From Paraspadella gotoi (lineage: Eukaryota > Animalia > Chaetognatha), in NCBI GenBank assembly GCA_051294375.1, contig CM119266.1:16300087-16364086 (forward strand): a stretch of 64,000 nt of DNA, written 5' to 3'. A program made the translations under genes and the position numbers. The notes under the pieces were generated by a model. That model was not told where the DNA came from. It did not search any database and saw nothing but the letters and a program-made list of their open reading frames with translations. Below, piece by piece: positions 1-31,100 of the stretch (position 1 is the stretch's first letter; each line of letters opens with the position of its first letter).

Positions 1-700
1 CACGATTCATTAAGGTTTTCCTTGTTGCAGCTCTCCAGCCGCTATCCGCCCGCCGTAAACGCCGTCACCGAACGCCGTTCAGTCCATTTCCTCCTTTCAA
101 TATTCGCTGGACAATTTAAAGGCACGAATGAGAGAGAGAAGAGAGATTGAAAAGTCGAGAGTCGCTCTTCGAAATGAGCAGGGGACGGTGGTTGAATTGA
201 AAGGGAAAATGTCATTTGTTTTAAAGAGAACGGTTTGATAGTAATGTTCAACGCAAATGAACTAAAGAGAGATTCGTATGTTATATGAACGCGGTTTAAT
301 ATATAATTACTGTATATCGTTATCCAATTTATTTTCTTATTTCTCTTCGAAATTATTAAGCTCAATAGACCTTTCAACATTTTTAATTCTATGAGTTTAG
401 AAAGAAAAAAGACGTTTCAAGAAAGGCTGTTGTCGTCGTCGTCTCGTCGTCATGGTTTGGTTTTGAGTCGGAAGAAAGAAAACCCGAGAATCACTTTAAT
501 AAAGTGGAAGAGAAGGAGAAAGAAAGGCAATTAAAGAAAAGACGCAGAAGGAATGAGGTAGAGAAAGAGAGGGAAATTAAAAAGGAAAAGAAAGGAGGTG
601 AAGAGAGAAGTTAAAGCGAGAGGGAAAGTGCGAACGAGGATCAGATGTGGAAAGCGGAGCGAAAGGGGAACGATAAATAAGGATAGATTAATTATTATCT
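1..700. repeat. Left arm of outer long inverted repeat (pairs with 4648-5369); probably continues beyond the window start
   Basis: Base 1 cacgattcattaaggttttccttgttgcag is the reverse complement of ctgcaacaaggaaaaccttaatgaatcgtg ending at 5369. The match continues with scattered small indels to ggatagattaattattatct (~700) versus agataattaattaatctatcc (~4648). Confidence 0.93.
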
Positions 701-1083
<383 letters not shown>

Positions 1084-1377
1084 ATTTAAAGGTCGTGCCT
1101 GATGGTGTAGTTTGTATACACAATAGCGCTACCGCTATTTAGTAGACACTCGATCACCGTGAGCTTTTATAAATAGATGAGATTACTTCGGAAAACGAAA
1201 TATTTTGTATCTGATAGAGTCGTCATATATAAATTGATACAAAAATTATCCATTCATTTAATGAATAAGCTATCTGGCCCTGACTTTGGACAGGCTTGGT
1301 GGTTTATATGTTATTTTAAGTATTTTTAAGTTTAAGGAACAAATTTATTTGTTTTTATCAACGAATTGTATTATTGG

Positions 1378-1420
1378 TAAGACATGGTTCGACTCTTGAG
1401 TTTTAGAGTCTCATCAGTTA
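1378..1420 (-). ncRNA. Minimal type I hammerhead ribozyme motif in the 3' pseudo-LTR
   Basis: Minus strand reads taa-CTGATGAG-actct-aaaactca-agagt-CGAAc-catg-TC-tta: CUGAUGA core, stem II actct/agagt, GAA(A) box, palindromic short stem III and GUC cleavage triplet. One mismatch to the canonical GAAA. Confidence 0.7.
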
Positions 1421-1582
1421 TGACAATCAATATTTTTTACTCTTTAACTTAGTTTAGAGAGAGAGAGAGAGAGAGAGAGAGAACAAAAAGAGGGAGTTCC
1501 AACAAGAATTGAGCAAAGGACAGTGGTCAGATATGAGGACAGGTGAAGGTAAGATCAGGGAAGAAGTTGGGTGAAATTTGAA

Positions 1583-1620
<38 letters not shown>

Positions 1621-2269
1621 GGGTAAGAGAAAATCTTACATTTTTTTTTGTAATGTATAACAATGATAGAGAAATAAAAGAACAAACTTAATAGTTAAAC
1701 TAATAGTAACATTGTAAAAATAATTAATGAGTAAAGAAGTTGAAATTGAAATAGAAGAATAAGTGATGAGGGATAGGTAAGTAAAGAGTTAGTGAAAATT
1801 AAGTTGAGAGAAAGAGCTCAAAATGAGCTGGCCCCCCCCGGGTTGGCAAAGGTGGGACGTTTGCGATAGGTCGGGTCATTGGCTGTCATGGGCTGAGAAG
1901 ATATGACTGTGGAGTGTGACATTTCGGACCTGGTAGTGATCCTCCTGGAAAATGCCTAACGCCACTCGAATATCTCTCTGGCCTGATAGGCTGCCGATGG
2001 CCCTCTCTCACCTGACGGTGGGTGGGCGATTGCCTGTTCTTGCCTGCTTTGGTGCAGGAGATACAGACTCCTCTCCTCCTCCTGTAGCCGTCGTTTTGGG
2101 ACGACGCCCAGTGTGAGAGAGTCATCCAGGTTGCTACAGGCTGGAGAGGTATCGGTCGTCCATTGCCTGCTGGAGGTCTCCGCCTGACCCGTTTGAGTGG
2201 GGGGCAGGGGAATAACCGTGCGGTTGGGGCGGCTCTGGGCGTTCCACCACCAACTTGATAAGCGAATCA

Positions 2270-3900
2270 TAGCTTGGAGGGGGATCGAAGCGTCTCCATC
2301 ACGGTTAAGAGAGGGCTCGAGGGCTTTGATGTAGATAGCCTCTCTAATACCTCTTGAAAACCAATTTTGGTCATGGACAGCACGAGCAGTCCGTCTCTCT
2401 AAACAGATGGCCAGAGGCTACAGAGTGCTCTGATATGCTGACAGGTAGTTGACCTCGTGAGTCCGGTAAGGTTTCGTATGTTGCTTGAACCGATTGAGAG
2501 AGATTTTCCTGTCTCGCCAAGTATGCTGCTGTGCAGGGTTGGTTTTCCCTTGCCTGCACAGGCGCCAATAGACGGCTCCTGATGTTTTCGTTCTGGGATT
2601 TTGTCTTTCGTTTCACCAGTTGCTCACGTAGAGAACCGCGGGTCGTCACTGAAGTGGAGATCCCCGCTTTGCAGCACCCGCACCAAAGCTTCAGTGATCT
2701 GGTGGTAGGGGAGGGTAATGTGACCACGTTCTTGAGACGCTTCTGCTTATCTCCCATTTGCGCTGTGGTGGGCGGCGTTGGTCTTCAGCAGCAAGGTCCC
2801 GTTCTTCTCCTGGGGGCGGAGGTTGAACCTGCGTTAAGCGGCTACTTGGGCAGCCCCTTGGTGGCCACTGCCTCAGCTTTGGTTCTGCCGGAACCTAGCC
2901 TTCTCGAATGCCTACAGAGGTAACCATTGAGCGCCAAGGCTTTTTTTACATGCTCAAAGCTCGGCGGCTGGAGCTCGGGGGTCGACGGAATCAGAAGAGC
3001 TTCTCCTGGTAAGGGATCTGACTGTGGCGAGCTTGGTTGACAAGGGGGCGTGCGAATCAAAGGGAATTGTATTGATCAGTAGGCGTTGGTTTTGCGATAG
3101 ACAGAAAACTCCAATGAGCCGCCTCTCTTGTGCGCTTTATAAGCACATCGAGCATTGGAATTTTACCATTCTTCCTCTTTTTTCACACGTCACTTGATAC
3201 TCGCTTCGATGCCGTTAATGTGTGTTAGTAAGGGCTCAACGAGATCCCTTTGCACAGCCAGGATGGTATCGTCTGCTTTCCGATACAGAAGAAGAACTGA
3301 CTCTGCCCATGCAGAGATCGAAAGAAGCCAAGCTTCCACCTCATAGTCCTCCATATAGAAATCTGCAGAGGACTTGAGGTTGATTTCCCATCCCTAAGCC
3401 ACCAGGCTGGGCATAGTACGGTCCATCGAACCTGAAGTACGCCAGTTCCAGGCGGCCGCAGGCAGTGCCATGATATCATCCAATTGGATTGGCGTACGCT
3501 CGTGTAACAACCGGTCTCCCTTCAGGCGGCGTTCTGCGGATGCTAACCGCCAAGTCCCTGAGGGATGTTAGTGAATCATACTTTTAAGTCACACGAGACC
3601 AAGAGATGACATATCGGGCACTATGATATGCTGGAGCTTTTCTGTCAGGATCGAGAGAATTTTTGAGGTGGTGTTGGTTTCCGACAAGAGGAGTGAGAAT
3701 GCGTCCCAACTCCTTCGTCATTCATTGAAAATGGAATTGTCGGGCCGATACGATAGGGCGTAACGGTAAATCGGGCTTAGAACCTTCGGCTGACCGAAGA
3801 AAAGAGGCGGCTGCGTTGAGTCAGGTTGACTCTATGGAATACTGCCGGGGAACAGTATTCGCGAATTTTTGCTTGTTTCAACGCGTCTGGATCTTAACTC
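2270..3900 (-). pseudogene. Frameshifted reverse transcriptase + GIY-YIG endonuclease ORF of the Penelope-like element
   Basis: Conserved motifs are spread over several reading frames (ORF-track pieces 3225..3479, 2842..3060, 2371..2757) and there is no continuous ORF. This is either decay or error-rich consensus. Confidence 0.8.
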
Positions 3901-4112
3901 TGTAAGCAAGAGCTTTTCTTAACTTAATTTTCACTTAACTCTTTACTTACCTATCCCTCATCACTTATTCTTCTATTTCATTTCACTTCTTTAACTCATG
4001 TAATTTATTTTAACATGTTACTATTAGTTTAACTATTAAGTTTGTTATTTTATTTCTCTATCATTGTTATACATTACAAAAAAAATGTAAAGATTTTCTC
4101 GTTTACCTGTGT

Positions 4113-4155
<43 letters not shown>

Positions 4156-4337
4156 CAAATTTCACCCCAACTTTCTTCCCCTGATCTTACCTTCACCTGT
4201 CCTCATATCTGACACTGGTCCTTTGCTCAATTCTTTGTTGGAAAACTCCCTCTTTTCTTTTTTGTCTCTCTGCTCTCTCTCTCTCTGCTTTCTCTCTAAA
4301 CTAATGTTAAAGAGTATAATAAAATTGATTAGTCAAT

Positions 4338-4381
4338 AAACTGATGAAGATCTCTAAACTCAAGAGTCGAACATGTCTTAC
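4338..4381 (+). ncRNA. Second, degenerate copy of the minimal hammerhead motif in the inverted pseudo-LTR
   Basis: aaa-CTGATGA-agatctct-aaactca-agagtc-GAA-catg-TC-tta, the inverted copy of 1378-1420 with indels. Confidence 0.6.
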
Positions 4382-4647
4382 CAATAATACATTCGTTGAT
4401 AAAGACAAATAAATTAGTTTTTTCTCCTAAAAACTTCAAAAACGCAACGAAAATTGATAGTTTTACACATAAGTATTTTTTAAGTTCAGGCATGTTAAAT
4501 CGCAGAAATTTTAACTAAGCTAACTAGTATTTAACATGAAAGCATTCTTACGAAAATATTTTTAGTTGCTGGACGATATAAACTAATATTCTATAGTTCA
4601 CTTTCGGTCAGGTCATTCAGTTTTATAGTTATTCTTTTTTTGGCATT

Positions 4648-5369
4648 AGATAATTAATTAATCTATCCTTATTTATCGGTTCCCCTTTCGCTCCGCTTTC
4701 CACATCTGATCCTCGTTCGCACTTTCCCTCTCGCTTTAACTTCTCTCTTCACCTCCTTTCTTTTCCTTTTTTAATTTTTCCCTCTCTTTCTCTACCTCAT
4801 TTCCTTCTGCGTCTTTTCTTTAATTGCCTTTCTTTCTCCTTCTCTTTCCACTTTATTAAAGTTGATTCTCGGGTTTTCTTTCTTCCGACTCAAAACCAAC
4901 CATGACGACGAAGACGACGACGACAACAGCCTTTCTTGGAAACGTCTTTTTTCTTTCTAAACTCATAGAATTAAAAATGTTGAAAGGTCTATTGAGCTTA
5001 ATAATTTCGAAGAAAATAAGAAAATAAATTGGATAACGATATACATGCAATTATATAATTAAACCGCGTTCATATAACATACGAATCTCTCTTTAGTTCA
5101 TTTTGCGTTGAACATTACTATCAAACCGTTCTCTTTTAAACAAATGACATTTTGCCTCTCAATTCAACCACCGTCCCCTGCTCATTTCCGAAGAGCGACT
5201 CTCGACTTTTCAATCTCTCTTCCTCTCTCTCATTCGTGCCTTTAAATTGTCCAGCGAATATTGAAAGGAGGAAATGGACTGAACGGCGTTCGGTGACGGC
5301 GTTTAACGGCGGCGGCGGCGGCGGATAGCGGCTGGAGAGCTGCAACAAGGAAAACCTTAATGAATCGTG
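4648..5369. repeat. Right arm of outer long inverted repeat (pairs with 1-700)
   Basis: Reverse complement of 1-700. ORF-track peptides 42..380 and 5136..5396 come from the two copies. Confidence 0.93.
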
Positions 5370-5957
5370 AAAACGGAACCCGGAATAGTCTCTCATTTAT
5401 GGGAATGAGGCGATTGTTTTTGTTTTTTAGCCTTTTTTTTATTAGAGAGAGATAACACGAACCGAAGCACATGCTGCAATATGTGTACTGTGTAGTGTAC
5501 CGTATATACGATACTAAACTTTGCCTCGCAACTACTGTTATTCCGGAAATACGTCTCTCCAGTCTCCATACGCTTGAGAATTTATTGAATTGCAATACAA
5601 TCAAGGGGGAAAAAACAAGGGGCTAACGCATAATTTTGTGTCAAAATTTATACTTTAATAGATATCTTAGTCTTGCATCTATCTTCTGAACTGATTCTTA
5701 ATTATAGTATGATTTAACATACCTTTAACATACCTTGCACAGTTGTTGAATCTTAAACAAAAACAAAAAGGACAAAAGAGAAGACTTTCAAAAAAGCTCT
5801 TCGTCTTTCCTTTGAACGATTTGTCAAAATTCACGTTTTTCAACAAAAATAACAACTTTCTCTAGCCCCTCTCTCCAGTTGAGCTAAAAGGCGGTGGAAG
5901 GATCATTTTCAGCCATCTGTTCCGGTTAATCAAAAACCGTTCTTTTCATCGAATCGG

Positions 5958-6525
<568 letters not shown>

Positions 6526-7133
6526 GAAGGAAAAAACTAAACGCGACTTTCTTAAAGTGCAACTTCATTCCTATTTCAGTTTATTCATGAATTTCAAATT
6601 CAAAAGGAAGTTTTTTTTTCTTCTTCTTCTTTTTCTTTCTTTCTTTCCTCTTTTTATTTGTCGAAGCCTTTTTTTTTTGCAGGGTTGGGGGGGCGTAGCG
6701 GGGGGGACACGGTTTTCTACCAATCGATGACGAAATGACGTTTTACGACAGCCAATGGGGGAGTGAGAAACCGATTTATGCGCAACGTCGCATAAAATGG
6801 AAGGAAGGAAAGAAAAAATTGCGAATTTAAGCTCATTTTATATAAAAAGGGGAAAAAAGGTTCTCCTTTTTCAAAGTTGGCGATTAAAGGGAATGAGAGC
6901 TTCATTAAAAACTCGTTGAAGGGGCGGCCGGTTTCGGCGACGATGGATCTGAAGATCACGTCGACGTTCGCTTCCGGTCGAACGCAGAGATGAATGATGA
7001 ACAAATAAAAAAGGAATTTAATTTAAAAAAAAAAATTAGAAATTTATTAACAAGAAGCAACAATAACAAAGGATAACGTAGTGGCAGTAAAATCTCAGTA
7101 CGAATCTAAAGACTCAAAAGCGTCGAGTCAGCC

Positions 7134-10100
7134 TCAGGTTTCCCTCTTCACCGCAGTCTCACTCTCCGGAAGGGAGACCGCTTCTCCGTCAACCGCCAAC
7201 GGCGCTGTCGAGGCCGCTGACGACGCTGACGACGCCGATGCCGCCTTCGCCGCCTCCTCCTCCACGAATCTCACACACTTCTTTTTCAGCTTGCACAGGC
7301 GGCACCACTGAGCAAGCCTCAACACTCCGTACACGGCCCGGCACTTCTTGCCCGCCTTGTCCTTGCCCTCGTGAGCCTGAGCCACGTGGGCTCGCAGCCG
7401 AGCGGGCGACCCGACGACGACGCGGCCGCAGATTTGACAGGGGTTCTTGCGGAGGCCCTCGACGCCCTCAATGTCGGGTAGGTTACTTGGTTCGAGAACC
7501 TGGAGAAAGGACGAGGTTATTTGGAGGTGTTATTATTCTTTGGTCCAGAAAGATTTAAAACAAAGACGGACGGAAAGGTCAGAGGCTCAGAACAACGCCT
7601 AATCCGCTCCTCATCCACCGGCCTACCTGCTTTTTATAGACGTCGAGATATTCGGCGATGAGTCTCTTGTCGATCCCCGACTCCCGTTTTCCTCGCGTCG
7701 ACGTCGAAGTAGTCTTGTGCTCGAAAAGGTCGTTCTCGAGCTTCTTGAGGATCCACTCGTCGGAGGCGGCGGCGGACGAAGCAGCGACGGCGGCGGCCAC
7801 GATTTTGGAGGCGTCGAGGTTGGGAGCGTCCGGATCAAGTTTTATTCCTTGCGTCAAGATGTCCGAAGGAATGCGTACGATCGTGTAGCCTGAATAATAG
7901 ATTTCATTTACATCGTTAAATACGCAACTACATAATTACATACATTGCATAATAGTAATATAGTAATCGTAATACTAATAGTAACATAAAAATTGAGAAA
8001 TAACATCTTTAATATCAACAAAAACGTTTGTATTATCACCTGGGAGCTCCTCTGAATCTTCAACTTTTGGCGTCTTCGTCGCCGCGCGGTCCAACTTAGC
8101 CTTTTTTATCGGTGTCATCGCCGACGAGGCTGCCACTGGCGCCGCTGCATCCGTTTTCGAACCGGCCTTCTTTTTAGGAGGAAAGAGACTTTCGTGTCCC
8201 GGATGTAAGGCGTGGATGTGTCGCCGCATATTGGCGTAGAAGCCGAAGGCTTTGGCGCAAACTGGACATGAGAACTTGCGTGGGTGTTTGAGCGTCTGTG
8301 GAGAGTCTGCAGAAGTAGCTGGCGCTGCAGGGGGGTTGTCAGTGGCAGTCTCTGAAGGTTGAGCAGTGATGGAGGTTTTGACTAAACTGTTCAATTTCGT
8401 ATCGTTGTCGCCCGCAGATACAGAAGGCTGAGTTGGCATTTTGAACGCCTGATGAGCTAGAGTCGTCGGCAGAGAACCGTAGGCAGCATTGACAGCACTG
8501 ACGGCGCTCATAGTGCCTATGGCGCTGACGGCGCTGTGGAAGAGAGGTGTGACGGCAAGAAAAGGTTTTCCCTGCTGGTGATTATTTCCGAAATCGACGA
8601 GCGGCGGCGCGAAGACTTGACACGCAAATGAAGTAGCTGGTGCTGCTGCAGGAAGTTCGTCCATCTCGGGCGTTTCAACGTCAACTTCGTCGTCCTCGTC
8701 GTCGTCGCTTTCGTCGTCGTCGTCGTCGTTCTCTGCGGAATAGTCCGGTTCGTCGGTGGGTCGAGTGGGATCGAAAACGGCGTCCATGCATCGCTGCAAG
8801 ATGTTTTCCGATTTGACCTCGATTTTCTTCGACTTCTCGGCGTAAGGACCGACGGGCTTGCGCCGCTTTCGACCCGGACAACCGGTTCGCAAGAAAAAGG
8901 TCATTGCGAGGCCGTCGTCGTCGTCAGTGGCGCCGCCGTCGACGAACCAATCTGCGGCCCGACGAAACGAAGCCGTCGTTGTCGTTGGACGAATGACGAC
9001 GACGGAGCCGCCGCGGACGAAGAACTCGGGCAACGCGAAGGCCGCATCGCGTCGGAATTGAACGTCGACCGCCGCCGACGTCGGTTCCACCAGCCGCAGC
9101 CGACGAGCGTGACCTTCAGCGCCGCATGCCGATTTAATCAAGGCCGTAGAAAAAGGACGCCATGCAGTCGTTCCTAAAGAACAACGAGGCGCCGCTCTCT
9201 TGGCGCTAGAGTGCAGATCAGCGACGCGGGGAGCGAAGAGTCGGAGTAGCGGCGCCAGTTGGTCGGCGGCGAAATCGACGGCGCCGAGAATCGATCCGGA
9301 ACAGTGAGAAGTTTCCGTTTCGGACGAACAACGGCATCCCTCCACGAGACGAGGCTGCTGACCCTCGTCAACCGCGCATGCGCATGCCTCCAGCCTGTCG
9401 TCAGAGATGGGAATCGCATTTCTCGAGCTCAAACGAGAGACGATTGATTCGGACGACGATTTAGACAACGCGTCCCACACGACGAGACAGATGACCCCGA
9501 AGGCGCGGTGACACGAGTGGCCCTCGTGACGAAGCGCCAACAACACCGCCGACTCTTGGGGGGAGGTGCGCTGGATGGCTCCGTGGCTGCTTTCGACGGG
9601 AAAAACCACGTCGCAAAGGGAACCTACAATTTTTTTTTTTGATTGGTAAAAAATAAAGCGAAAAGCCAAGTTTAAAAAAAAGAAGTTTTAAATCATAAAA
9701 TTTTAATTTTTAGACGGATTCCGGCTCTAGGTATAATTTACTTTGCATAATTAATACCATGATGGAAAAAAAATTGTCGCGTTTACTTTCCAGCTATTTT
9801 TTGGCATTTTAATGTGAGAATCGAAAAAAAAGTTACATATCGAAAAACTTTGGCCTTTTGTGATTCATATGAGCTGTCTCATTTATGAAATTGGTACAAC
9901 CAATATAAAAATTATTCATTCATTTAATAAATAAGCTATCTTGTCCCTGACTTTGGACAGGCTTTGGTGGTTTACGGCCTCCATCACACTTACAAGATAA
10001 CATAGCAGGTTTCTGCAAGCTTTCAATCAAGACTCTCTCACAGTCTTATTTATTCACTCCCAGTGAACCTGGCTTCCCTATCAATGAAGTGATATAATAT

Positions 10101-11367
10101 TTCAAAGAATGTTTCAATTGTATGAAAAGACCACTCCCTTAAGTATTAGATCGGTGAATACTATATTTGTACTCCGCACTAGCATCAAAAATACAAGGAG
10201 CTGAATTTTATGATATTGGTACACCAATATAAAAATTATCCATTCATTTAATAAATAAGCTATCTTGTCCTTACTTTGGACAGGCTTTGGTGGTTTAAGG
10301 CCTCCATCACAATTACAAGATAATAACATAGCAGGTTTCTGCAAGCTTTCAATCAAGACTCTCTCACAGTCTTATTCACTCCCAGTGAACCTGGCTTCCC
10401 TATCAATGAAGTGGTATAATATTTCAAAGAATGTTTCAATTGTATGAAAAGAACACTCCCTTATATACGACAAAAAATAAAAGAGTTCAATGCAAAAAAA
10501 AATGAGTTGTCCAAAAAATGCTTCTTTCTTTTTTATCTTTTTTATATCTACACTTTTCATTTATATGCTAATTTCCGGTTCTTTTTTTTATTTTTTGAGT
10601 TAAACCGTTACTATTAAAAATCCGTGCATTTTCTCAGTCTCATGTCAAATAGTTATTGTATCATCTTCATTAGGATAGATTCAGGGATGAATCTTAACTC
10701 ATATATCAAAAAAATAGCAGCATTAAAAATACATTAATGCTCCAGAATATTTTTTTATATTGTAAAGTATCAATAAAAGTTATAATGCTCCAGTAACCTT
10801 TCTATGAACAAAGTTATCATTTTTATTTACCTCTGGATATATTATCAAAACAAAATAGCAAAAATTCCAAAAAATAAAAAATAAAAATTTTGTTAAAATA
10901 AAAAACAATACATCATTACATTATACAACAACTCAAGCCTGGATTATTCTTTTTCACTGCTTGCCAAGGACCATTTTTTGCCTTAAATCTAATAAAAAAT
11001 ATTATGCTAAAGATATAATATTAACAATAATATGAGTAGTCATCTTTATCAAAAAGAGATGAAAACAGTTGAAAACAACCTTTTTTGGAATTATTTCATT
11101 GTATTAAATAATTTTATGCTGTTGAGAAATAATCTTTTTATTCAGTTTTAAGGAGGTTATATTACATATTAAAACTTATTTACCAGCCAAAAAATATATT
11201 TGACAATGAAATTAACCGACTTTTCCAAACCACGACAATTTTTTTCCCTCGTGGTAACTAATCAGATGATTAATTAACTTTTTTTTAAATTGAAAAAGTA
11301 TAAATTAATTGATGAAAAATTAAATTATATCACTTTATCGAGAGCCGATCCGGCATTGTTTGCTTTT

Positions 11368-11421
<54 letters not shown>

Positions 11422-12405
11422 TATGCAATTTTTATGCATGATCATTGATCAATGATCATCGTTGTTGAAAATCTTTGTCTTACCTGAACGTCGTCTCTCC
11501 ACCAGCAAAACGCGTATCGAGTCTCGATCCAATCCCGATCTGACCGCCACGCTTTTGACGAGCGATTCAAGGTCGGACGCGCTCACGAGGTCGCCCACCG
11601 CGTTCACCGCCGCCGCCGATTCAAGTGGCGCTGGACACGATCGCGAATCGCAGGTGATTTCCGTCGACGGGGCGTTGGACGTCTGTGGCGGCTGTGTTGG
11701 CGGAGGACGAGTGGAATCGGACGTGGATTCTTCTCGAGCCGATTCTTCGGAATCAGATTCTTCTTCAATCGACGACGAAGACGGAGAATTGGAACTTTCG
11801 CCCGATTCGAATTCTATTTTCTCGCTCTTTGGAGCGGCGGGAACAGGCGCGCCCGAAGCTGGGGCATTCACTGCGACCAAGGAAGATCCCGCGCCCGGGT
11901 TGAACATCGAAAATGAACCGGAAGGAATTAGCGGCGAGGTATGAACGCCGGGATGAACGCCGGGATGAACGCCGGGCGGGACCGCGCCAACCTTAGCAGA
12001 TGCGTCCACGCTCGCTACAAAGTTGGGGGCGAGAAACATTGGACGCATTGCTGCCGGACCCAGGGGGTGGAACTGCGCCTGATGTTGCGTCGCTTGCTGC
12101 CCGTTGGCCAGAATAACGTAGGGTTGTTGCGGGGGCTGTTGTGGATTCGTTAAGGCCGTTGGATAATTCGATGAACTTTTCGATGGATCCAATTGCGCAA
12201 CTTGGCCGTGTTGAAGAGGCTGAGGTACAAGTTGCACCAAGGCCTGGGCCGGCTGCTGAGGTGGCATCTGTACCAAACGGACGCCTGGCTGCAACATCGG
12301 GGAAATCATCTGAAGCATTTGAGGTTGAGGCGAGCCGCCGACTGGGTTTACCATAGCGAACAATTGCGGAGGTGTGGCGTCTTTTTCTCTTTCTTTGTTA
12401 GACAT
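7134..12405 (-). CDS. TET-like (probably inactive) domain + 2x C2H2 zinc finger + C-clamp protein, ~1044 aa; exons 12405-11484, 9623-8040, 7889-7627, 7499-7134
   Basis: All three introns are GT-AG and phase-consistent (1,1,0), total 3135 nt. TET-like blocks: QRTSPQESAVLLALRHEGHSCHRAFGVICLVVWDAL, EACAC, QLAPLLRLFAP, APRCSLGTTAWRPFS, LAMTFF. Fingers: CPVCAKAFGFYANMRRHIHALH and CQICGRVVVGSPARLRAHVAQAH. C-clamp: KKCRAVYGVLRLAQWCRLCKLKKKCVRF. The N-terminus is Q/P/S-rich. Confidence 0.82.
9891..10463 (+). repeat. Intronic direct duplication of ~250 bp (9891-10141 and 10216-10463); a fragment of the same repeat lies at 1241-1305
   Basis: Both copies run ttggtaca(a)ccaatataaaaattat...ctttggacaggctttggtggttta...tgtatgaaaaga.cactccctta. 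1241-1305 matches their first ~70 bp. Confidence 0.9.
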
Positions 12406-12759
12406 GATTGAATTGTTAGGCGAAATAATTTAAACGTTAAGTGGCACGATACTCGAAGTGAATGCGATGAGAGTCACAGAATTACATTTTCCTCGTCGGT
12501 TTTAACGATCCAATGATTTTTCTGCCTCACTCAATCGGCACATATATCTCACCGACAGCGGTGATGCATACAAAAAAGGGAAGAGAGCGGCTATCGCAGT
12601 CTCGGTTGGACTCGATTTACGGTATTAGTAACGAGGGTTGGACGGACAAGCCCGTTACCGATCGAAAGGGATTGTGACTTACCCTCCGGACGCCTCGCCG
12701 CAGCAGCGCGGCGGTATTATTTTTATTCGGGGAATTTTGGCACGAGGAACAAACAAAAG

Positions 12760-13219: not shown

Positions 13220-16200
13220 ATGTTAACGCTACAGTTTCGATTCATTAAGGCCACGATATGTTTAGCGGCCTTGTTGCCACTTTTAGTGCAGTTAGGACTG
13301 ACGGCGATCCACGTTTTGATGTCGAACGTAAGTTTAATAAAGTCGGGCGAGCATTAGGAAAATCGACGGTGACTGTCCGATTGACTCTTATCACTTCACT
13401 GTTCACTTCTCAGGTTCTACTGAAACAGTTTGCGAAGTTTTTTGTCATAATTTCGATCGTGATAACAAAGAACGCTACCGATATAGAGAATAGAAGGATT
13501 TTGGACAGGTACAATTTTGTTTCTTAAATTATGTTTACCTGGCAGAAAAGCAAAGGTATAGAGAAAGCAGTTTTGAATTACTGTAACTAAGGTTATCTTG
13601 TTGTTCACTTCTTTGACAACCTGGACAATAAAATAGTTTCGCGTTTTATGATTGGAAATCAGGATGAAGACGACAGTGAACTCGAAATCTCACAACGAAA
13701 CCGGTTGGACCGCTATGAGGTGAGAGGATAAAATATAGAACTACGTCGTAGTCTACGAATTTGTATTTTACTTAATAAAAAAATAAAAGAAAATTTTTTT
13801 CATAAATTTCTATGGTTGTCAACAGTAAAAAAAATTTGCAGAACTAATACTTAGCTAAATATTTTTGCTCTAAATTCAGTTCGATTGAAGTGAGTTTGTT
13901 TATTAATACTTTTGTTCAATTCTTCCCTTATCTTTAATATCCTTCTCTTTAATTCGTTAAGACGTTTGATGACTCAGCTCATGGAGAAAAACAACGCGGC
14001 TCAAAATCCCCTCGAAATCGACGAAAATGGCGACGGGAGGATCGACGTCGCGGAACTCGTGAGTTTTTCCTCGAATAGCTTTTAATTTCTTCGTAAATTG
14101 CGGTGTCGTATCTTTCTATTTAACGCATGATAACTATCCGTACCGGCGTAAGATAATATGTATAAGTATATTCGATTTAGCTGCGATTTTTTACTCGTCT
14201 CGCCTCTCAAGACGCCGAGTTGAAAAAGATCACCGTGGGAGAGATTAAGAAGCGAGACGGTGGAGTCGGCGGCCAAGGCGTCGGAGGCGTTGCGGAGAAG
14301 GAAGATGAAGAAGAAGTCGAGGAAGTTGTGAGGAAAGTCGTCAAGTGGATTAGAAGCAGAAATATTAAGTGAGATTTCAAATTTTATTTTTTTTTCTATC
14401 GCCTAACTTGCTTTTATCATCTCCTCGATAAATTATTTTGTCTAGAACGAAAAAGAAGTTGAAAGCTCCACCCTCGCCAGTACTGACTACGGATTCAAAA
14501 TCTCCCGGGACCATGGAGTCAACATCCAGCGATACGCCTTCGCGGGCCGCGACGTTGAAATCGCGGCCTGTACCCGACCCGGACGTCACTATCGAAACGC
14601 CCGCCGAAACAGAAGTTCACACGGTGGAACAAATGAAGAACATTTTTGGTTTCATCGACCACAATGGCGACGGAAGGATCGTCTTCAAAGAAATGGTTTG
14701 TAGTCGAACAAAAAAAAAATCGGGTGTTTGGTAATGGCCCTAATGGGTAATTATTTTGTACAATTTTACACACTAAGGTACAATATTTCGACGAGTAATT
14801 TTAATTTTAATTTTGTTCTTTTATATTACTATACTTTTTGTTTTTTAGATTTGACAGTCCACCTAGCAGAAGGACCTACATATTGAGGATTAAAATCATC
14901 ACTCTATAAACAATCAGAAATTTATTTATTGATTCATTTATACATTAGATGAATTCATTAATGAGTTCATGCTATGCATTAATTCGTGAATTAATTATTT
15001 AATCGAAGAATGAATAAATTGATTAAGATCAAATAAAATCCAGCTAATATTATTTCAAAGCAATACTCTTAAAACTACCCTCGGTTCTCACCCTCTCTTC
15101 CAAACCCTTTCCAGTACGCTTGGATCTACATCATTCTCCTCAATGAGGGCCTCGTCACGAAATCGAATCGCGTTGCCGAAGACGCGGACAAAGAGACGGC
15201 GTCGAAAGACGCCAGCGTCATCGATGCCCGGCGATTCGATCACGGCCCGCTTCCAGAAGACGACGCCGCCTTGAACGCTTCGCGAATGAGCGACGATCGC
15301 CGCGCTAGCTACGCCATCTACCTCAAGATGGGCCCGGTCTTCGACGCCATCGATACCGACGCCAACGGTCGGATCACCTTGGAGGAGTTCCTCAAACGAG
15401 GGGTTGGAGAAGGAGGGGGAGACGAGTGGACAACGTTGAGCCTGATCAACAAAGCCATGGTCGAATTGAGGGAAGAGATTCCCGCGATGAACAGGTGCTG
15501 GTTAATTTGCTTATTGGCTCAGCTGGCATGAAGTCTTTTCTTCATTGTTTTCTTCAGTGTCTCGCTGCCTCCTTCCCTCTTTCCTTCCTTTCCTCTCTCC
15601 CTCTCCTCAGGTTTCCCCCGCCTTCCGAATCGGAGCGGAAAGAGAATATCAAACCGGAAGTGAAAGTGGAAACGCGAGCGGAAGTCAAATCGAAAGTGGA
15701 AATGAAAGTGGATTCGGAGGCGGATGGCGGGAAAGAAACGGCGAAGGAAACGAAGCCCGAGCTGGCGTCCAAGATAAAGCATTTGGTCGAAGCATTTCGT
15801 GAGCTGCAGAGCGTGACCAAGCACAAAAAGGTGACCAAGACCGGGAAGTCGGTCCAGATGACGCTGGCAGTAGAGACGAATCAGGTGGACGAGTTGATGA
15901 AAATGCTTGAGACGGGGCGGGCTGACAAGTCGGAGAAGGCGGCCGAGAGGAAGAAGGCGGCCGAGACGAAGAAGGCGGCCGAGACGAGGCGGGCAGCTGA
16001 GGCGAAACGGGCAGCAGGGACGAAACGGGCAGAACAGACGAAACGGGCAGCAGATAAGAAACGGGCAGCAGAGGCGAAACGGGCAGAACAGACGAAACGG
16101 GCAGCAGAGGCGAAACGGGCAACAGAGGCTATGAGGACGGCTAAGAGGACGAAGCCAACACCCGAGAGAACGGCGTCGTTGGTGTACGAATCTTTCGATA

Positions 16201-16541
16201 CCGACGGAGATGGGTTTTTGAATATTCATGAAATTGTAATTTTTGAATATTCTGTTTTTGAATCTTCGACGCTGAGTTTTGACCCGATTCCCTTTCTCTC
16301 TCAACTTCAGAACAATTTGCTGTCGCGCGTAACCGATTCGGGTTTTTTGAAAAAATCTCCGATGGCTTTGCCTTACATCACCGACATGTTTGTGCAAACT
16401 ACCGACGTAGACGGAGACGGGAAAATCTCCAAGACCGAACTTACACGCTTCGTGTCGAAAAATTACCACCTCATGTTCTCCAACTTCAATCCAGAAAATA
16501 AAGACGCCAATGGAAACGAGAAACGGGTCAGACAACCCTGA
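13220..16541 (+). CDS. Multi-EF-hand calcium-binding protein with hydrophobic N-terminus, ~676 aa; exons 13220-13327, 13414-13508, 13663-13719, 13962-14058, 14181-14368, 14446-14695, 15115-15494, 15611-16235, 16311-16541
   Basis: Five canonical loops: DENGDGRIDVAE, DHNGDGRIVFKE, DTDANGRITLEE, DTDGDGFLNIHE, DVDGDGKISKTE. The GT-AG exon chain stays in frame (2031 nt). The first three exons (MLTLQFRFIKATICLAALLPLLVQLG...) are less certain, and the last 75-nt intron is in frame and could be retained. Confidence 0.72.
15931..16150 (+). repeat. Coding 18-bp tandem repeat encoding E[A/T]K[K/R]AA-type hexapeptides
   Basis: Units such as gaggcgaaacgggcagca give AERKKAAETKKAAETRRAAEAKRAAGTKRAEQTKRAA... 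Confidence 0.9.
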
Positions 16542-18039: not shown

Positions 18040-20604
18040 ATGTCACCCTCGAATGGACTTTTGGATTCAAAAACCGTCGATTTTGTTTTTCTCTTGACGA
18101 CGCTGCTCACTTGCTCCGGCTCCACCTACGCTTACACTTTTTCGACTATTGCTCCTGTAAAAAACTCCACCGACGTTCGATTCGATGGGAGGGCGCCGGC
18201 GGAAAGAGTGCGGCAGCTCCACGTCCAGATTCCATCTCGTCATTCTGACGAAAACTCTTCGTCAAAACTCGCCGAGGTCTTCGCCCAGGAAGAGCGTCGG
18301 ATTTCGTCGGATTTCGTAGCAGATCCCGCGGACGAACTCGTCGATGTCAGACCCTTCGAGGATGAGACGGCGGCGCGGGTCTCGACGAGCGACTGGGAGG
18401 AAATTCGAGAAGATCGCGTCAAACTTTGGAACGAGTTGAAGGCGATGAAGGCCAAACAGGCGAGAGCGGATAGAGATTCCTCGATTTTCCTGCGCAAGAG
18501 CCGGGCTACGGCGGCGCTGGCGGCGGCGGCGGCGAAAGAAATAAAGTATCTCCGTCACAAAACGGAAGCGTCGATGTCGAGATCGAAGAAGGCGGAGCGC
18601 TTCATCGGCGCCCTGAAGGCCGTCAACGCGGGATTGACGAAGAGGATGACGAAGGTCGAAGACGAGATGCGTCGATTAAAGGAAGCGAAGAAGACGATGG
18701 ACGCGGAAAGTGCGGCGTTGAAGGAAGCAGAGGCTGCGGATGCGTCGAGACTCTGGAACGAGAGACTGGCGATATTCAAGGACATGATCGATTCCTCCGT
18801 CAAAGCCGGCGTGGAAACTTTTGAAAATCGAGTGGATGCGGCGAGGGAGGCTGTCGAGAAAAAAAGCAAAGAGAAAGCGAGGGAATTGGAGAATATCCAA
18901 GAGGAGAGGTTCCAGCTGCAGGAAAGACGCCTCGCGGAGAACCGAGCGGAATTGAAATTGCTCCGCGAGCGAGTTTCCGATGCGGAGTCGACGGCAAAGC
19001 GGCTCGACAAGGGCTTTTCGGAACAAGACAACGCTTTCAACGACTTCGCCGCTCGCGTCGAGACAAACTTCGAAGCTTTCGTCGACGAGGCGGCGCTCCT
19101 AGCGACGGAGATGCGCAACAAGACGGCAGAGACGGAGGCTGGAGTCGAAGTCGTCGACACGGCGCTGCGTCGAATCATGACTAAATTGGACGCCGTAGAA
19201 GAAACGGCGCGAGAAACGCGGCGTCGAGAGACGGAGCGATTGAAGGCCGACGTCCGCACAGTCAACGCCAGCGTGTTTCGAGCCAACCTCTACGTGCAGT
19301 CCTTCGTGGAGGAGTTAAAGCGGCTGGTCGGACGCGACGCCCGCGTTTCGCGCGAATTGATGCGACTGGATCGCGTCGTTGGTGAATTCAAAAACGCCGA
19401 GACGGAGATGCGCGAGCGACTCAGGACGGCGCCGTCGCTCGATGCCCTTGTTGGCCTCAACGCCTCCGTCGACGCCCTCGGCGACCGCGTGAAGGCGTTG
19501 CGGCGCCTGCACGAGGATCAAGCGGCGCGGGATGCCGGAGATTTAGAAGTCGTGCTGGAGCGACACGACGATCTGGATCGACGATTGGAAAACGCCACAG
19601 ACAGCTGGAGAAAGGATTTGACGAGGTTAAGAGGTTTCGCGCGCGAGACGCAGAAAAGGATGAGATTATTGAGGTCTCAAGTCGAGGAGATTTTGGAAAA
19701 TCTCGAGGAAGGCGGCGACTTCGCCGAGCGGTCTCGATACGACGAAGGACGACGACGATTTTCGCCGGTGGATCGTTCCCCGCCTCCCGAGCCGATCCTG
19801 GCCGCTGTGCGGCTGCAGCGACAACGACTCCACCGACTCGACGGCCTCGTCCAGCGTCAGGGCGACGCCATCAGGGATATCGAGAGTGGCCTCGACGCCG
19901 CCGCCAAGGAGCTGAAGCAGACCGGGATGGACGGGATGATGTTCAAGGCAGAGATTCGAAAGTTGGTTGAGAGGAGCGACGCCGGAGAAGCCAGGACGAG
20001 GGAGGTGGAGAGAAGAGTGGAGATGGTGGAGGAGATGGTGGATAGATTGGCGGGAAGGGGGAAGGAGTACAGGGAGGAAGAAGGTCGTCGGAGGGCGTTG
20101 GAAATGTGGAGGAGAAACGCTGAGGAAGTGGAGTCGGTGTCCGAAGGAGGAACAGATCTTGACGGGAATGAAGATGAAAGAGAGAGAAGAAAAAATGATT
20201 TGGAGATAGAGATAGAAAAAAGAATTGAAATGGATTCAGATGAGAAGGAGGCAAGAAGGAGAATGGAGATGGAAATTGAAAGAATGGAATTGTTAGAGGC
20301 GAGAAGGAGAATCGAGATTGATTCGAGGCGAAGAAACGAATTAGAGGCTGGAAGAAGAGATTTTGAAGGAAAACTTAGGAGAACTGAGAAGGAGAACGGA
20401 AGAGAAATATGGGAGGAGGCAGAGGAGAGAAGAGGTATGGAGATAAGGATGGGAAGAACTCCTCCATTGGAAGCGAATAGGAGAACCGAGAGAACGGACT
20501 TTGGCTCGAGACGGAAATCAGGGCTGGAGGAGGCGTGGCAGCGTGTGGCCCGAAACAGACAGCGATCAAAGCGGAGGATGGGCGAAGTCGAAGACGTCCA
20601 GTGA
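18040..20604 (+). CDS. Putative secreted long coiled-coil glycoprotein, 854 aa, single coding exon
   Basis: 2.5-kb uninterrupted ORF with the ATG at 18040 just after a splice acceptor (ttatag, ending 18034). Signal-peptide-like VDFVFLLTTLLTCSGSTYA, E/R/K/A/L heptad-rich body and six N-X-S/T sequons. No globular domain recognised. Confidence 0.8.
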   Translation: MSPSNGLLDSKTVDFVFLLTTLLTCSGSTYAYTFSTIAPVKNSTDVRFDGRAPAERVRQLHVQIPSRHSDENSSSKLAEVFAQEERRISSDFVADPADELVDVRPFEDETAARVSTSDWEEIREDRVKLWNELKAMKAKQARADRDSSIFLRKSRATAALAAAAAKEIKYLRHKTEASMSRSKKAERFIGALKAVNAGLTKRMTKVEDEMRRLKEAKKTMDAESAALKEAEAADASRLWNERLAIFKDMIDSSVKAGVETFENRVDAAREAVEKKSKEKARELENIQEERFQLQERRLAENRAELKLLRERVSDAESTAKRLDKGFSEQDNAFNDFAARVETNFEAFVDEAALLATEMRNKTAETEAGVEVVDTALRRIMTKLDAVEETARETRRRETERLKADVRTVNASVFRANLYVQSFVEELKRLVGRDARVSRELMRLDRVVGEFKNAETEMRERLRTAPSLDALVGLNASVDALGDRVKALRRLHEDQAARDAGDLEVVLERHDDLDRRLENATDSWRKDLTRLRGFARETQKRMRLLRSQVEEILENLEEGGDFAERSRYDEGRRRFSPVDRSPPPEPILAAVRLQRQRLHRLDGLVQRQGDAIRDIESGLDAAAKELKQTGMDGMMFKAEIRKLVERSDAGEARTREVERRVEMVEEMVDRLAGRGKEYREEEGRRRALEMWRRNAEEVESVSEGGTDLDGNEDERERRKNDLEIEIEKRIEMDSDEKEARRRMEMEIERMELLEARRRIEIDSRRRNELEAGRRDFEGKLRRTEKENGREIWEEAEERRGMEIRMGRTPPLEANRRTERTDFGSRRKSGLEEAWQRVARNRQRSKRRMGEVEDVQ

Positions 20605-24144: not shown

Positions 24145-26379
24145 ATGTCTGACCCAGCCAATATGGCGGCCCCGGCTGCAACCACTGAATCTTCATCGTC
24201 GTCGGTTTCGTCGTCGTTATCATCATCGTTCGAAGTCGAGCCCGGTAGTAGAGCGATCCGCAGGCGCAGCGAGCTGGAACTCCGCTCGCTCGAAGAAGGA
24301 GCTCCGACAACAGCGATTATGACGACGCCCGCAGCAGCCGCTGCCGCCGCTGCCGGGATCGAATCTGCCGCGGCATCTGAGGCAGCCGCGGAAACAGCTG
24401 TCATTTCGGGCCGTAGGAGAGGCCTGCGCAGCGACAGCTCAGACGGAGGCAGCCGCGGCGAAGCAGGAGAACCTTCCGAAGTCGACGACGAAAACGACGA
24501 CGACGGCAACGATGAAAAAACTTTGGGGATGGAAGAAAGGAAACGAGGGTTCGACTTCGAAAGAAGAAGCCCATCGACTCAAACGAACGAAGAGAGAGAA
24601 AAACAAAGAGACGTCTGCCCACAATCCCCCTCATCTATTTATACCCACAAACCTCCAAATCACGAATCTCGGATCGAAGTCACATCCAACCGGAAGTCTT
24701 CCTCCGCGCCTGTTTCCAAAGACGACGTCCCTGCGTCGTACGACCACGTGGCTTCCGGCGGGAATTGCCAGCGATCCCCGAGTCACGACGATAACGACGA
24801 CGATAGCAGCGACGAAGGGCCGGCTTCCCCGCCGACCCCTCGGCGCTCGTTACGCGCCGCTTCAAGGACGTCGAACTCATCCGAGCACCCGCGAGCGTCG
24901 AAATCTGCGCCGCTACCGCCGCCGAGACTGACAGTCACAAAGGAGTTCACCGTCATGGCGAACATCGATGACGATTTCTTTTCAAACGACTCGGCAACCG
25001 CCACCCCGAGAAATGCCGTTCCCCCTGCCGCCCTCGAACCTGAGTTCATTTCTATCGAAGATCTTCCTCTCCCCATCAAAAAGCCGCCCGACGTTTCCCC
25101 GCCCTCCTCCGGTTCCTCGATGCTCGATGCATCTGCCAAGGTTTCCGGTTCCAAAGTCGGAGGACCGCCCCCGCCCAGTTCCTCGAAGGGCACGGCTACG
25201 ACGACATCACTTAAAAGTGCCACTGAGGCCGCTTCTCTGACTTTCGCCAGCGCTTTCGATCGTTTCTGCGCCTCTGGAAATCCGACTCAGTGGACCCCGC
25301 CACAAAAGGCGCCGCCTTCACCGACCCTGTCGGAGCCGAAGACGACTGCGACTTCGCTTTACAAAAATACGGAAACTTCTTCAATAATTGCCCCAGTAAC
25401 GAGCAAAGAGTCGAGCGACGCTTTGCTTTCTTTTAAACCGTCGTCAGCTGCGTCAAGAGCGTCGGCTTCCGTTAAAGATTTACCCAGCGACAAAATTGGC
25501 GCCGTCAATCGTCGCTCTCCGGCGTCCATGCCCACCTCTAAAATACCTTCGCCTCCGGTGTTGATGACCCCTTCGACTTCAACTGGTCAGAGCTTCCGTC
25601 CTCCCCCGCCGCTGGAGGCGCTGTCCGCCTTCGCCAAGAACAATCTTGGATCTTGGACTAAAGCTTCCCCGGTGGGAGCCTCTTCAGTGGCGGGGACCTC
25701 CTCGAGGGTTCCCGCCCAAGCAAAGCCGCCCTTCCATGCGACCACCAAGATGGTCTCCATCCTGAAGCCGAAACCGACGCCGGCGGTTGTGCCTTCCGCG
25801 ACGTCTAACCTTCTTTCAACAGCCACGATGGCGCCGACTCCAAAGCCTACCACTTCATCTCCCGGAATGAAGGGTTTTGCGTGTCACGCATGCGCAGACG
25901 AATGCCGCTCTATTGTAGCGCTGATGCAACATCACTTTAACACTCACATGACTTATAGGTATTTTTTCGTATATATTATATATATATATATATATTTATA
26001 TATTTTTACATAAGAGAGAGAAAGAGAAAGAAAAAGAAAGAAAGAAACTGACAGACTAGCCCGGTCTGATAAAAAGATTATATGAAGAAATAAATACATT
26101 GAATTAGGAATATATTTTCGAATATCTAATATTTAGTATCACAGACTTTATCATAAATAATCAACATTCGTAATCTAAATCAAATTTAAATCACGATCCA
26201 GATGCACCATTTGCGGTCAAACTTGGGGCATCAAACCAAAGATGTCGCCTGATGGCAGCATGCGCCTCAACCACGCCTGGACTTTAGGCATGACAAAATT
26301 GCATCTTATGCAACGACACTCCAGTGCTTACAGCGCCGCCAAGTGGAAGGAGAAGATATCAACTTGCATAAACGGTTAG
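24145..26379 (+). CDS. Ser/Pro/Ala-rich protein with C-terminal zinc fingers; exons 24145-25958 and 26202-26379 (3' end uncertain)
   Basis: The long low-complexity ORF ends in C2H2 CHACADECRSIVALMQHHFNTH. A phase-2 GT-AG intron leads to CTICGQTWG...TKLHLMQRH (long-spacer, BED-like finger). It either stops at TAG 26377-26379 or splices at gttagt to a further exon (possibly ~26651-26871). Confidence 0.72.
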
Positions 26380-28162: not shown

Positions 28163-31100
28163 TTAACATGATATTCTCTCTAAGATCGCACCGACAGTCG
28201 CTCCCCCGAGGACGTCCAGCTGCGACACCGTAACACCCAAAGTCAGGTGGCACCAATTGACGAGCTCGACCGCTGTGAGAGAGTCTACGCCATAATCGGT
28301 CATGGGCGTAGTCAACGATACTTTTTCAGGGGTGACACCCAAAAGTTCGCCGAGTTTTTCTCTTAGCAATGACGCCGCTTCCTCCGGCGTCAGTCGATCG
28401 TTTTTAACGGAGGCTTCTGTCGAAGCGCCGTCGAGTTTGGGAATGGAGAGATGGGAGAAGAGGAGGGAGTTTTTGGAGGCAAAGCGAGCGACAGTTGACC
28501 AATTCTGTTGAGTTTAAAAAAGAAGGATTTTAATTACTACATACGGTTTTTGTTTTAATTTCTTTTTCCCTCTAAAATTTAAAAAATAAATCTCACCTGA
28601 TTAGCCACACATACGACCGCTGGGATTGCGTCTTTAGCGCACATTAGTTTTTTGAGGGCTGTCCATATTTCCTGCGAATGAAGCGTCTTCATGCCTTTTG
28701 CTTCCAGCATCTTCATTGTTTCCAAGTTCTTCTCCAAAAATCCGGCGCCACGTACTGCTCCCATTTGAAGAGAGAGGGCGTTCGCCCCGCGATGCCGGCG
28801 GCGTTGAGCCAAAGCGTCAAGAGCAGAATTTGCAGCACAGTAGCAAGGCTGAGCAGGTTGACCCCAAGATGCTACCACGGAGGAAAATAGGACAAAGTGA
28901 TCCAATTCCATTCCTTCGGTACCCTGATCCAGTGCGAGGGCTCCACGTACCTTGGCAGCCATAATTCGTTCTATTTGTTCATCATTTAATGTATCAAAGC
29001 TTTCGTTTTCTATAACTCCGGCCATATGGAAAACTCCTTTCAGGGGATATTTCTTCTCTTTTTTGACAGTTGCTACCATTTCAAACACTTTATTTTCGTT
29101 TGCCATATCAACAACATAATTTTTGACGTTTATACCTTGCTGTTCTAATTCCAGTAACAGGCGCTGAGCTGCTGACGTTTTTATCTTACTCCTTGATGTA
29201 AGAATTAAATTCTTGGCCCCCATTTCAACTAACCAGCGAACAAAGGATTGACCAAGACCCCCTAACGCCCCTGTCACCATATAACACACCTCACTATCCA
29301 GTATTTTGGTAGCAGATTTAAGGTTCAAGGGCTGAAAATTTTCAGGAATAGTCAAAACGTTTTTACCGATATGCGATCCTCTTGTCATTGTTTGGAAAAC
29401 AGACTTATAATCTTTGATATTAAAGACTGTGGTTTTAACTGGCTTAAGTGTACCACTTTCAATAAAATTCAGTATTTCCTTTAAAGTATTTTTTAGGGTT
29501 TCAGGTTCAGTTTTTGTCATGAGATCAATCTGGCAGGAAATGAAGCTTTTGTTTTGAAAGAGTAATTTTGTCGCAAGGTTAACGTTGTTTAGCAAATCTT
29601 TCTTTCCGATTTCCACAAATCTACCACCCGGTGCAAGGATTTCAATGCCTTTCATCATTAAATCGCCACTAAGAGAATTTAAAACTACATCGACTCCTCT
29701 GCCATTAGTCCATTCTAAAACATCTTGTACAAATCGTTCACTTCTAGAATCAGTTGTGTAATGTATATTAAATTCGTTTGTTAAAAAATTTCTTTTTTCT
29801 TCTGATCCAGCAGAGCAAATTACTTTAGCCTTACAAAGATTAGCAACATTTATTGCTGCGAGGCCGACTCCGCCACAGGCTGAGTGGATCAAAACTGTTT
29901 CATTTTCCTTCAAATTTGCCTTCTTACATAAAGCTGTAAATGCTGTCGTATATACTATAGGTAAACCGGCAGCCTCCTCCCAGGACAAAAATTTAGGTTT
30001 TTTTATAACGAGATTTGCATCACAGAGTGCATGGCTCCCCAGACAGTGAGTTCCAATAGCGATTACTTCATCTCCACATTTCAAGTTCTTTACATTAGGA
30101 GCAACCAGATCTATAATTCCAGAGCATTCGATACCAAACCCACTTGCTGTTTCAAACTCAAGTAAATCATCCAGTAAGCCAAGTGATTTCATGACATCCT
30201 TGAAGTTCATAGCAACAGCTTTGACCTGGATTCTGACTGTTCCAGCTGATGCGTGACAGTTTTTTACTTCTTGCATCTCCATAGACTCAATATTTCCATT
30301 CAAATTTTGGTCTACCCTCCAAACATTCTTTGGAGAAATTTTGCAGTCAGGAAAATCCATTGAGCATATTCGTGGGACCATTGCGACACCATTTTCTATT
30401 ATGTACTCACACTCAGGAGAGATACTTTCCATCACTGTAAAAGCAGCTAATGTATCTTGCTCATAGTTGACACTTTCTTTTAGAAAAATAGTATGCAAAG
30501 AAATCTCTGTTAAGTAATTTGAAACAGAGCGAAGTAGACCTTGAATCCCACTTAAATCAGAATTGTCCTTCATTTTGCATATTATGAAAATTCTATCAAT
30601 CTCAGAGGAACTATCACATTTTTGCAGATAATGAATCAATTTTTTTAAGCTTCTGTCTTTTGAATTGTCATGCAGATATACAATTCTTTCTTTGTTTTTC
30701 TCCCCGTCCCTCGATAGAGCTCTTACAAGGCTGTTTTTTGTGTTTTTTTCTCTTTTAAACTGTTGTTTAAAGCTTTTGTCATCGTTTTCATTTTCCTGAG
30801 TACCAACAAATAACCAATGATATTGAGAATTATGAAACAACTTTGGTTTCCAGCCAATGAGAATGGAATGTACAAATTCCTTTGGAGTAGAAAAAGTTGT
30901 TACAACATCAAGTCCAACGTTTTCCATACATTCCTTGTAACTATTCTTATCAGCCCAGCATCTCACTTTTCTAAAGTCATTAAATGTCCAGCAAACCTCT
31001 AATGCTCCAAACCATAATTCTGTCAAATTAAATGTATTTGTTGCTTCGAGAATGACCAATGCTCCGCCATCACAGAGCAGTCTTTTGAGGTTTTTAATGC

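Follow-up and report, generated by a model that had tools for sequence, protein, structure and literature searches.

On the minus strand of a window of 64,000 nucleotides of the chaetognath Paraspadella gotoi (the window being the whole stretch of DNA that was analysed, to which all positions refer), a gene of four exons, 12405-11484, 9623-8040, 7889-7627 and 7499-7134, encodes a product of 1044 amino acids that joins a region of TET ancestry to two C2H2 zinc fingers and a terminal C-clamp. The TET-like domain looks, by its residues, catalytically dead. On balance the protein is probably a nuclear, sequence-specific regulator of transcription or chromatin and not a dioxygenase, with the C-clamp as its reader and the TET-derived domain, devoid of HxD, as a scaffold. 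That a pseudo-TET, two fingers and a C-clamp sit in one gene was the original prediction, and the TET profile, the splicing and a C-clamp structure match bear it out. The span then given, 7134..9623, covers exons 2-4 but omits exon 1, with the 307 amino acids in which the TET-like domain starts.

Gene model and transcript support

The model derives from 15 open-frame models, generated from all GT/GC-AG combinations near the junctions first proposed, and is set apart from the others by a CAG|GT donor at each of its introns. The coding part of exon 1 (11484..12405; aa 1-307) is an open frame with a CAG|GTAAGA donor, and comprises a P/Q-rich N-terminus (aa 1-190), an S/E-rich stretch (aa 191-250) and, at about aa 250-307, the start of a region resembling the TET Cys-rich region. 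Exon 2 (8040..9623; aa 308-835), one open frame, holds the rest of the TET-like domain, a basic patch, an acidic tract (8674..8730; aa 606-624), an A/P/S-rich linker and the first finger; RKRRKP, at 8854..8871, is a likely nuclear localisation signal. Exon 3 (7627..7889; aa 836-923) resembles no known family, its sole Pfam match being at E 0.17, and exon 4 (7134..7499; aa 924-1044 plus the stop) encodes the second finger, the C-clamp and an A/S-rich tail. Within intron 1 there is a tandem duplication, 9899-10463, of ~323 bases with 95-98% identity.

Three public runs were considered, none of them on record as RNA. The RNA nature of the informative one, X1, a single run possibly from the same source as the assembly, is a guess; the other two, X2 and X3, give coverage of the repeat only. 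In a comparison of X1 contigs with 7060-9630, contig 1 (1353 letters) matches 7098-7497, 7625-7888 and 8039-8727, thereby extending past exon 4 to 7098, and splices out 7500-7626 and 7890-8039, the two 3′ introns, both with GT-AG ends. Finger 1, exon 3 (spliced at both of its ends), finger 2 and the C-clamp are carried together by this contig, and the depth in X1 of a bin inside intron 2 is 0. The two 3′ junctions, 8040/7889 and 7627/7499 as foreseen, are shown to be spliced in X1. (Contig 1 departs from the window only at position 8414, where an Ala/Val allele affects aa 711 of the low-complexity linker.)

Contig 6 (2087 letters), which with contig 1 covers exon 2, matches 8698-9625 and then continues for 1159 letters beyond the exon 2 acceptor. 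Its match runs two letters beyond the acceptor before it breaks off, which is what a preceding exon ending in CAG would produce, and extrapolation from the remainder puts the 5′ end near 12644. X1 contains 0.61 of the words of 7000-12500, where 0.575 is expected with exon 1 and 0.395 without it. Together the contig 6 extension and the word share strongly imply the exon 1/2 junction, whose own letters are unread. Contigs 6 and 1 share 30 letters in a GAC repeat within exon 2 and have depths of 17.7 and 17.3; no one X1 contig carries both the TET part and the C-clamp.

TET ancestry and apparent loss of the catalytic site

The confidently TET-derived region, aa 272-468 (9142..11592, minus strand, split by intron 1), runs from the Cys-rich region through a helix and the first strand to RPFS. 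Its ancestry can be regarded, on sequence comparison, as secure because four approaches agree. At E<=10 the first 257 amino acids of exon 2 retrieve nothing but human TET2 from the PDB, in three distinct sequences, with a match at E about 6e-5 (5.8e-5) in two collinear stretches. Among 1,835,955,588 cluster representatives there are four matches at E<=0.001, all four of them Tet_JBP proteins (113-173 bits) and three of them named insect or Hydra TET-type proteins. A profile of the TET cores of these four scores 55.7 bits against the gene model, the maximum of 500 shuffles being 1.1 bits, and matches aa 272-375, a stretch that spans the exon 1/2 junction, as well as aa 425-468. HHalign to TET gives 98.2% and E 3.6e-14. 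At E<=1 none of the four exon ORFs is matched by the Pfam model Tet_JBP, and identity to TETs over the ~200 in-frame amino acids is about 27%. The predicted structure of the exon 2 part has a pLDDT of 35 on a six-row alignment, and it is so poor that a stable fold of the TET remnant is not established. The top five Foldseek rows of that model are TET2 (E 0.04-0.08; VIA Z 5.7-6.3), which is not independent support, since TETs were in its alignment.

With animal TETs (human TET2, PDB 4NM6/5D9Y; insect and Hydra TETs; Pfam PF12851) the protein shares the Cys-rich region, GHxC, the helix and the RPFS strand, collinear over ~200 amino acids. Unlike them it has HxR for HxD, a loop 16 amino acids shorter, a distal His/Arg half that is undetectable and no CXXC; moreover, C2H2 fingers and a C-clamp follow its TET part, whereas none of eight stored TETs (two of them partial) shows either pattern. 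As to the N-terminal CXXC of the TET1/3 type, the exon 1 ORF is without a Pfam match, and a Hydra TET used as control does show zf-CXXC.

At the iron site, ungapped extension from the conserved RPFS leads to a degenerate E477-G-H479-A-R481 (9103..9117) in place of the TET H-x-H-x-D, which in TET2 is H1380-A-H1382-R-D1384 (numbering anchored on T1372 in the chain alignment). H1382 and D1384, together with H1881, are the iron ligands of TET2 as described in PMC6244454. CAHxHxD is kept in 8/8 stored TET sequences. Here the 1044 amino acids contain no H-x-D/E triplet, and aa 480 to 600 are without any His. From the [FE]GC cysteine to the xPL helix there are 26 residues, as against 42 in 4/4 TETs, and the ~16 that are missing after the FGC cysteine we take to be the DNA-contacting loop of TET. 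They include the position of K1299, a residue linked to TET2 activity in PMC6244454. The Arg pair before the CAC motif is lost as well.

For the C-terminal half of the barrel, with the distal His and the Arg for 2-oxoglutarate, no placement rises above shuffles with two TET templates. At the best placements 107 to 477 of 500 shuffles do as well, and in a further test 22/100 do so. At sequence level the second half of the TET fold is undetectable, and a very diverged remnant may persist. Two candidates were rejected in this connection. Exon 3 (HKTT...RLIAEY), considered as the source of the distal His, is equalled by 107 and by 247 of 500 shuffles, and a compact barrel in aa 485-555, seen by eye, is without statistical support.

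In a count made on one alignment with four TET templates, 31 of the 109 invariant TET columns are retained (78/109 lost). Those kept include Cys (6/12), Pro (4/5), GHxC and RPFS; of Lys (0/6), Asp (0/4) and Tyr (0/3) nothing is left. The pattern suggests retention of the fold without the chemistry, and zinc is described as holding the TET Cys-rich domain and barrel together (PMC10415333). Demethylation by this protein appears unlikely. The earlier notion of a C-clamp that stands in for CXXC is unsupported in so far as the clamp would aim a demethylase, because the iron site is broken.

Fingers, C-clamp and CpG setting

Both fingers were found by motif scan and are under the Pfam cut-off. Finger 1 (8203..8268, minus strand; aa 760-781) matches zf-C2H2 at E 0.031, with 15.2 bits against a cut-off of 25.2. 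For finger 2 (7371..7439, minus strand; aa 944-966) a single-sequence model has two strands and one helix at pLDDT 63-79, and its Foldseek rows are mostly C2H2 fingers, none of them at E 0.001. Nine residues further on comes the C-clamp (7263..7349, minus strand; aa 974-1002), with the sequence KKCRAVYGVLRLAQWCRLCKLKKKCVRF at 7349-7266 and the spacing C-x12-C-x2-C-x5-C. Single-sequence modelling of this part gives pLDDT <50. The best PDB match of exon 4 is the C-clamp of SLC2A4RG, 7DTA (E 2.3e-5), gapless over 30 amino acids and with the same cysteine spacing. Scan and match uphold what had been noticed at the outset, namely a C-clamp directly after a C2H2 finger and another finger at ~8203-8268.

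The clamp has its full set of four cysteines and, at K975, R977, K993 and K995-K997, the basic residues of K2/R4 and of the run that separates Cys3 from Cys4; their counterparts in the fly TCF C-clamp are reported in PMC3896468 as required for DNA binding. Where 7DTA has CRWKKAC the clamp here has CKLKKKC, and its motif may differ because Leu replaces the Trp of SLC2A4RG before the Lys pair. In 2021 Duan et al. reportedly told two signatures apart, Arg...Trp-Lys-Lys for HDBP and Arg...Arg-Lys-Lys for TCF, and assigned the reading of unmethylated CpG to the Lys pair. If those signatures are correct, the clamp would keep the CpG-reading Lys pair with a third flank residue, Leu. Binding of unmethylated CG motifs is, on these sequence features, likely. 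The C-clamp draws TCF1E to CpG islands, and in a preliminary EMSA the binding of TCF1E fell strongly when the helper site was methylated (PMC4267635); the methylation sensitivity attributed to C-clamps from the beginning is in that form on record, with CpG methylation reported to block binding. The motifs are also longer than bare CG, being RCCGCC and CCGGCCGG in the accounts of PMC4267635 and PMC11601247.

The group closest in layout comprises ZNF395 (HDBP2/PBF), ZNF704, SLC2A4RG (HDBP1/GLUT4EF) and fly Glut4EF, which have in common C2H2, a C-terminal C-clamp and no HMG box, and the clamp here starts KKCRxVYG, as in 7DTA. In the three human proteins, as described in PMC11601247 and PMC4999783, specificity is apparently in the clamp, with the motif CCGGCCGG. 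As compared with this group, the protein adds an N-terminal pseudo-TET, has Leu for Trp and possesses two fingers, one of them just nine residues ahead of the clamp, where human ZNF395, ZNF704 and SLC2A4RG have one according to PMC11601247. The E-tails of TCF/LEF, and invertebrate TCF/Pangolin, also have the four-cysteine clamp with a basic run. Unlike TCF/LEF, the protein is without HMG box and beta-catenin-binding domain, for which none of the four exon ORFs gives a Pfam match at E<=1. The KKK before its Cys4 presumably resembles TCF. Since those two domains are wanting and the layout is that of ZNF395/704/SLC2A4RG and not of TCF, the connection to Wnt helper sites that had been proposed is unsupported. 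A different type of C-clamp host is Panish of chironomid midges, which is lineage-restricted, is tied to its parent only by a 30-aa C-clamp with substitutions of its own and arose by duplication and promoter capture, as recounted in PMC6783274; unlike the chaetognath protein, it has no TET-derived domain and no C2H2 fingers.

No orthologue was found in protein, metagenome or atlas searches. Word-seeded searches of longer proteins gave nothing for exon 2 (7977 candidates) or for its first 257 amino acids (3239 candidates), and nothing among 36 candidates for finger 2 plus clamp, where even ZNF395 and TCF were missed. Two metagenome scans confirmed 0/600 and 0/431 pattern matches. A protein atlas yielded nothing for the TET part and, for exon 4, rows that are all <0.9, one of which, carrying ZNF704_C at 0.83, amounts to no more than a lead. 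The gene's own product is absent from the 1.84 billion representatives. So, by one exact look-up in the protein collection, is a single-exon ORF of 854 amino acids at 18040-20604 (+), with a hydrophobic N-terminus, a long charged coiled-coil-like body and no Pfam match. These blanks are weak, because known C-clamp proteins were missed and both the gene's own product and that other ORF are absent. The C2H2 and C-clamp layout is already known from ZNF395/ZNF704/SLC2A4RG and catalogued in PMC11601247, and the architecture first described as unfamiliar is so only in its TET half. For the pseudo-TET, C2H2 and C-clamp fusion neither a database match nor a published description was found, in collections and a literature where the lineage is poorly represented. 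The TET fusion is real, combines known parts and is apparently undescribed.

The ratio of observed to expected CpG is 1.22 for the whole window and 1.1-1.7 in the exons of the gene, falling to 0.60 in intron 1 and 0.62 in a polyketide synthase gene, both with raised TpG/CpA. Patchy methylation of an otherwise unmethylated background would fit such CpG-poor stretches, and so would composition alone. As far as base composition can tell, the distribution argues against islands of the vertebrate style. The guarding of CpG islands suggested at first is, in the vertebrate sense, a poor fit to a window that is CpG-rich overall, at 1.22, even if patchy methylation may be marked by some CpG-poor stretches.

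Several neighbours merit mention in their own right; together with the spliceosomal introns and the animal type of the TET, those with many fingers indicate an invertebrate animal as the source. The polyketide synthase, type I and with few introns, occupies 28163-36082 (-). Besides a KS piece near 35.5-35.9 kb it has a main ORF of 1850 codons at 34131-28579, in which AT, DH, methyltransferase, ER and KR domains are encoded, and, at 28513-28163, a piece that resembles an ACP. In contrast to the genes around it, it is rich in AT and poor in CpG, as for a methylated gene body or foreign origin. At 58337-64000 (+) an open frame runs off the window after at least 1887 codons; it encodes nine C2H2-like fingers, and CpG in its middle part is at 0.64. 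A low-complexity S/P/A-rich ORF at 24145-26013 (+), without a Pfam match and with a C2H2-like finger at its end (25882), is probably exon 1 of a further zinc-finger gene. A cluster of EF-hand-like genes lies at 14000-16541 (+), where ORF 15309-16541 has EF-hand matches and a KRAAEA-type repeat. The GC-rich 1900-3700, with short broken ORFs and CpG at 0.72, looks by eye like a decayed retroelement, and six pieces of it are without a relevant Pfam match.

Proposed function and its alternatives

In the reading preferred here, the C-clamp would bind short CG-containing, GC-rich motifs when these are unmethylated, with help from the finger that lies nine residues before it. The TET remnant would stay folded around its retained Cys and His and serve as a protein-docking scaffold, in the manner of catalytically dead Tet1 in mouse cells, and the P/Q-rich and acidic stretches would be effector regions. 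The gene could have originated from a TET duplicate that lost catalysis and captured either a tail with C2H2 and C-clamp like that of ZNF395/704/SLC2A4RG or a C-clamp exon from a TCF gene. Non-catalytic Tet1 recruits PRC2 and Sin3a, as reported in PMC8989540. By analogy that precedent makes a scaffold role possible, without being evidence that this domain has one. However, no partner-binding surface of TETs is known to fall within the part kept here, the Sin3a and OGT sites being elsewhere. A more specific form can be put forward only tentatively: a natural pseudo-TET factor in which catalysis and insert are lost, the scaffold is held by zinc and a clamp of a third signature (Arg...Leu-Lys-Lys) marks unmethylated CG and recruits or titrates the complexes that partner TET.

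The loss of 78 of the 109 invariant columns and of a detectable C-terminal half of the fold can also be taken to mean that the TET part is a decaying passenger left from the duplication by which a divergent ZNF395/704/SLC2A4RG-like or Panish-like factor obtained its promoter and first exons, duplication with promoter capture having its precedent in the Panish of PMC6783274. This is unlikely, since ~200 amino acids remain in frame in which Cys, Pro, Gly and core hydrophobics persist and charged or substrate-side residues have gone, a pattern closer to selection for a fold than to drift. Somewhat less likely again is a non-enzymatic guard, with the C-clamp in place of CXXC, that shields CG-rich regions free of methylation, either by obstructing methyltransferases or by recruiting, or competing with, a real TET. 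The methylation-sensitive binding of C-clamps and their drawing of TCF1E to CpG islands, as described in PMC4267635, would be in keeping with such a role, and the CpG-poor, TpG/CpA-rich stretches (0.62 in the polyketide synthase gene, 0.60 in intron 1) could reflect patchy methylation. However, the window is CpG-rich by default, with no islands evident in the vertebrate sense, and a clamp that needs RCCGCC or CCGGCCGG (PMC4267635, PMC11601247) needs more than CG.

Persistence of enzyme activity, through a rearranged metal site (e.g. E477 plus H479) acting on a nucleic acid or another substrate, is very improbable. H479 does stand at the first iron-ligand position with a Glu two residues before it, and segments of aa 485-555 that are strand-like by eye could form the rest of a compact barrel that has no insert, but those segments lack statistical support, no second His follows 479 in the domain, and neither the Arg pair preceding the CAC motif nor the FGC-adjoining loop downstream of it is left. 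Scarcely credible is that the fusion itself is false, from two separate genes or a mis-assembly. The break of two X1 contigs at the GAC repeat is what could suggest it, but it falls inside one open exon, the 30-letter overlap is as expected for neighbouring unitigs, the depths match and a single letter differs between contigs and window.

For the present the weight of the pseudo-TET regulator is limited by its being known from one genome, with no orthologue found. The share of TET biology that is non-catalytic is debated, and has been studied with engineered point mutants. If the reading is true, a naturally dead TET paralogue on a sequence-specific, methylation-sensitive DNA-binding module would show which parts of the fold are kept without the chemistry; it would serve as a natural test of TET minus chemistry, and its C-clamp would have replaced CXXC by convergence. 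It would also provide C-clamps with a new host architecture, besides TCF, the ZNF395 family and Panish.
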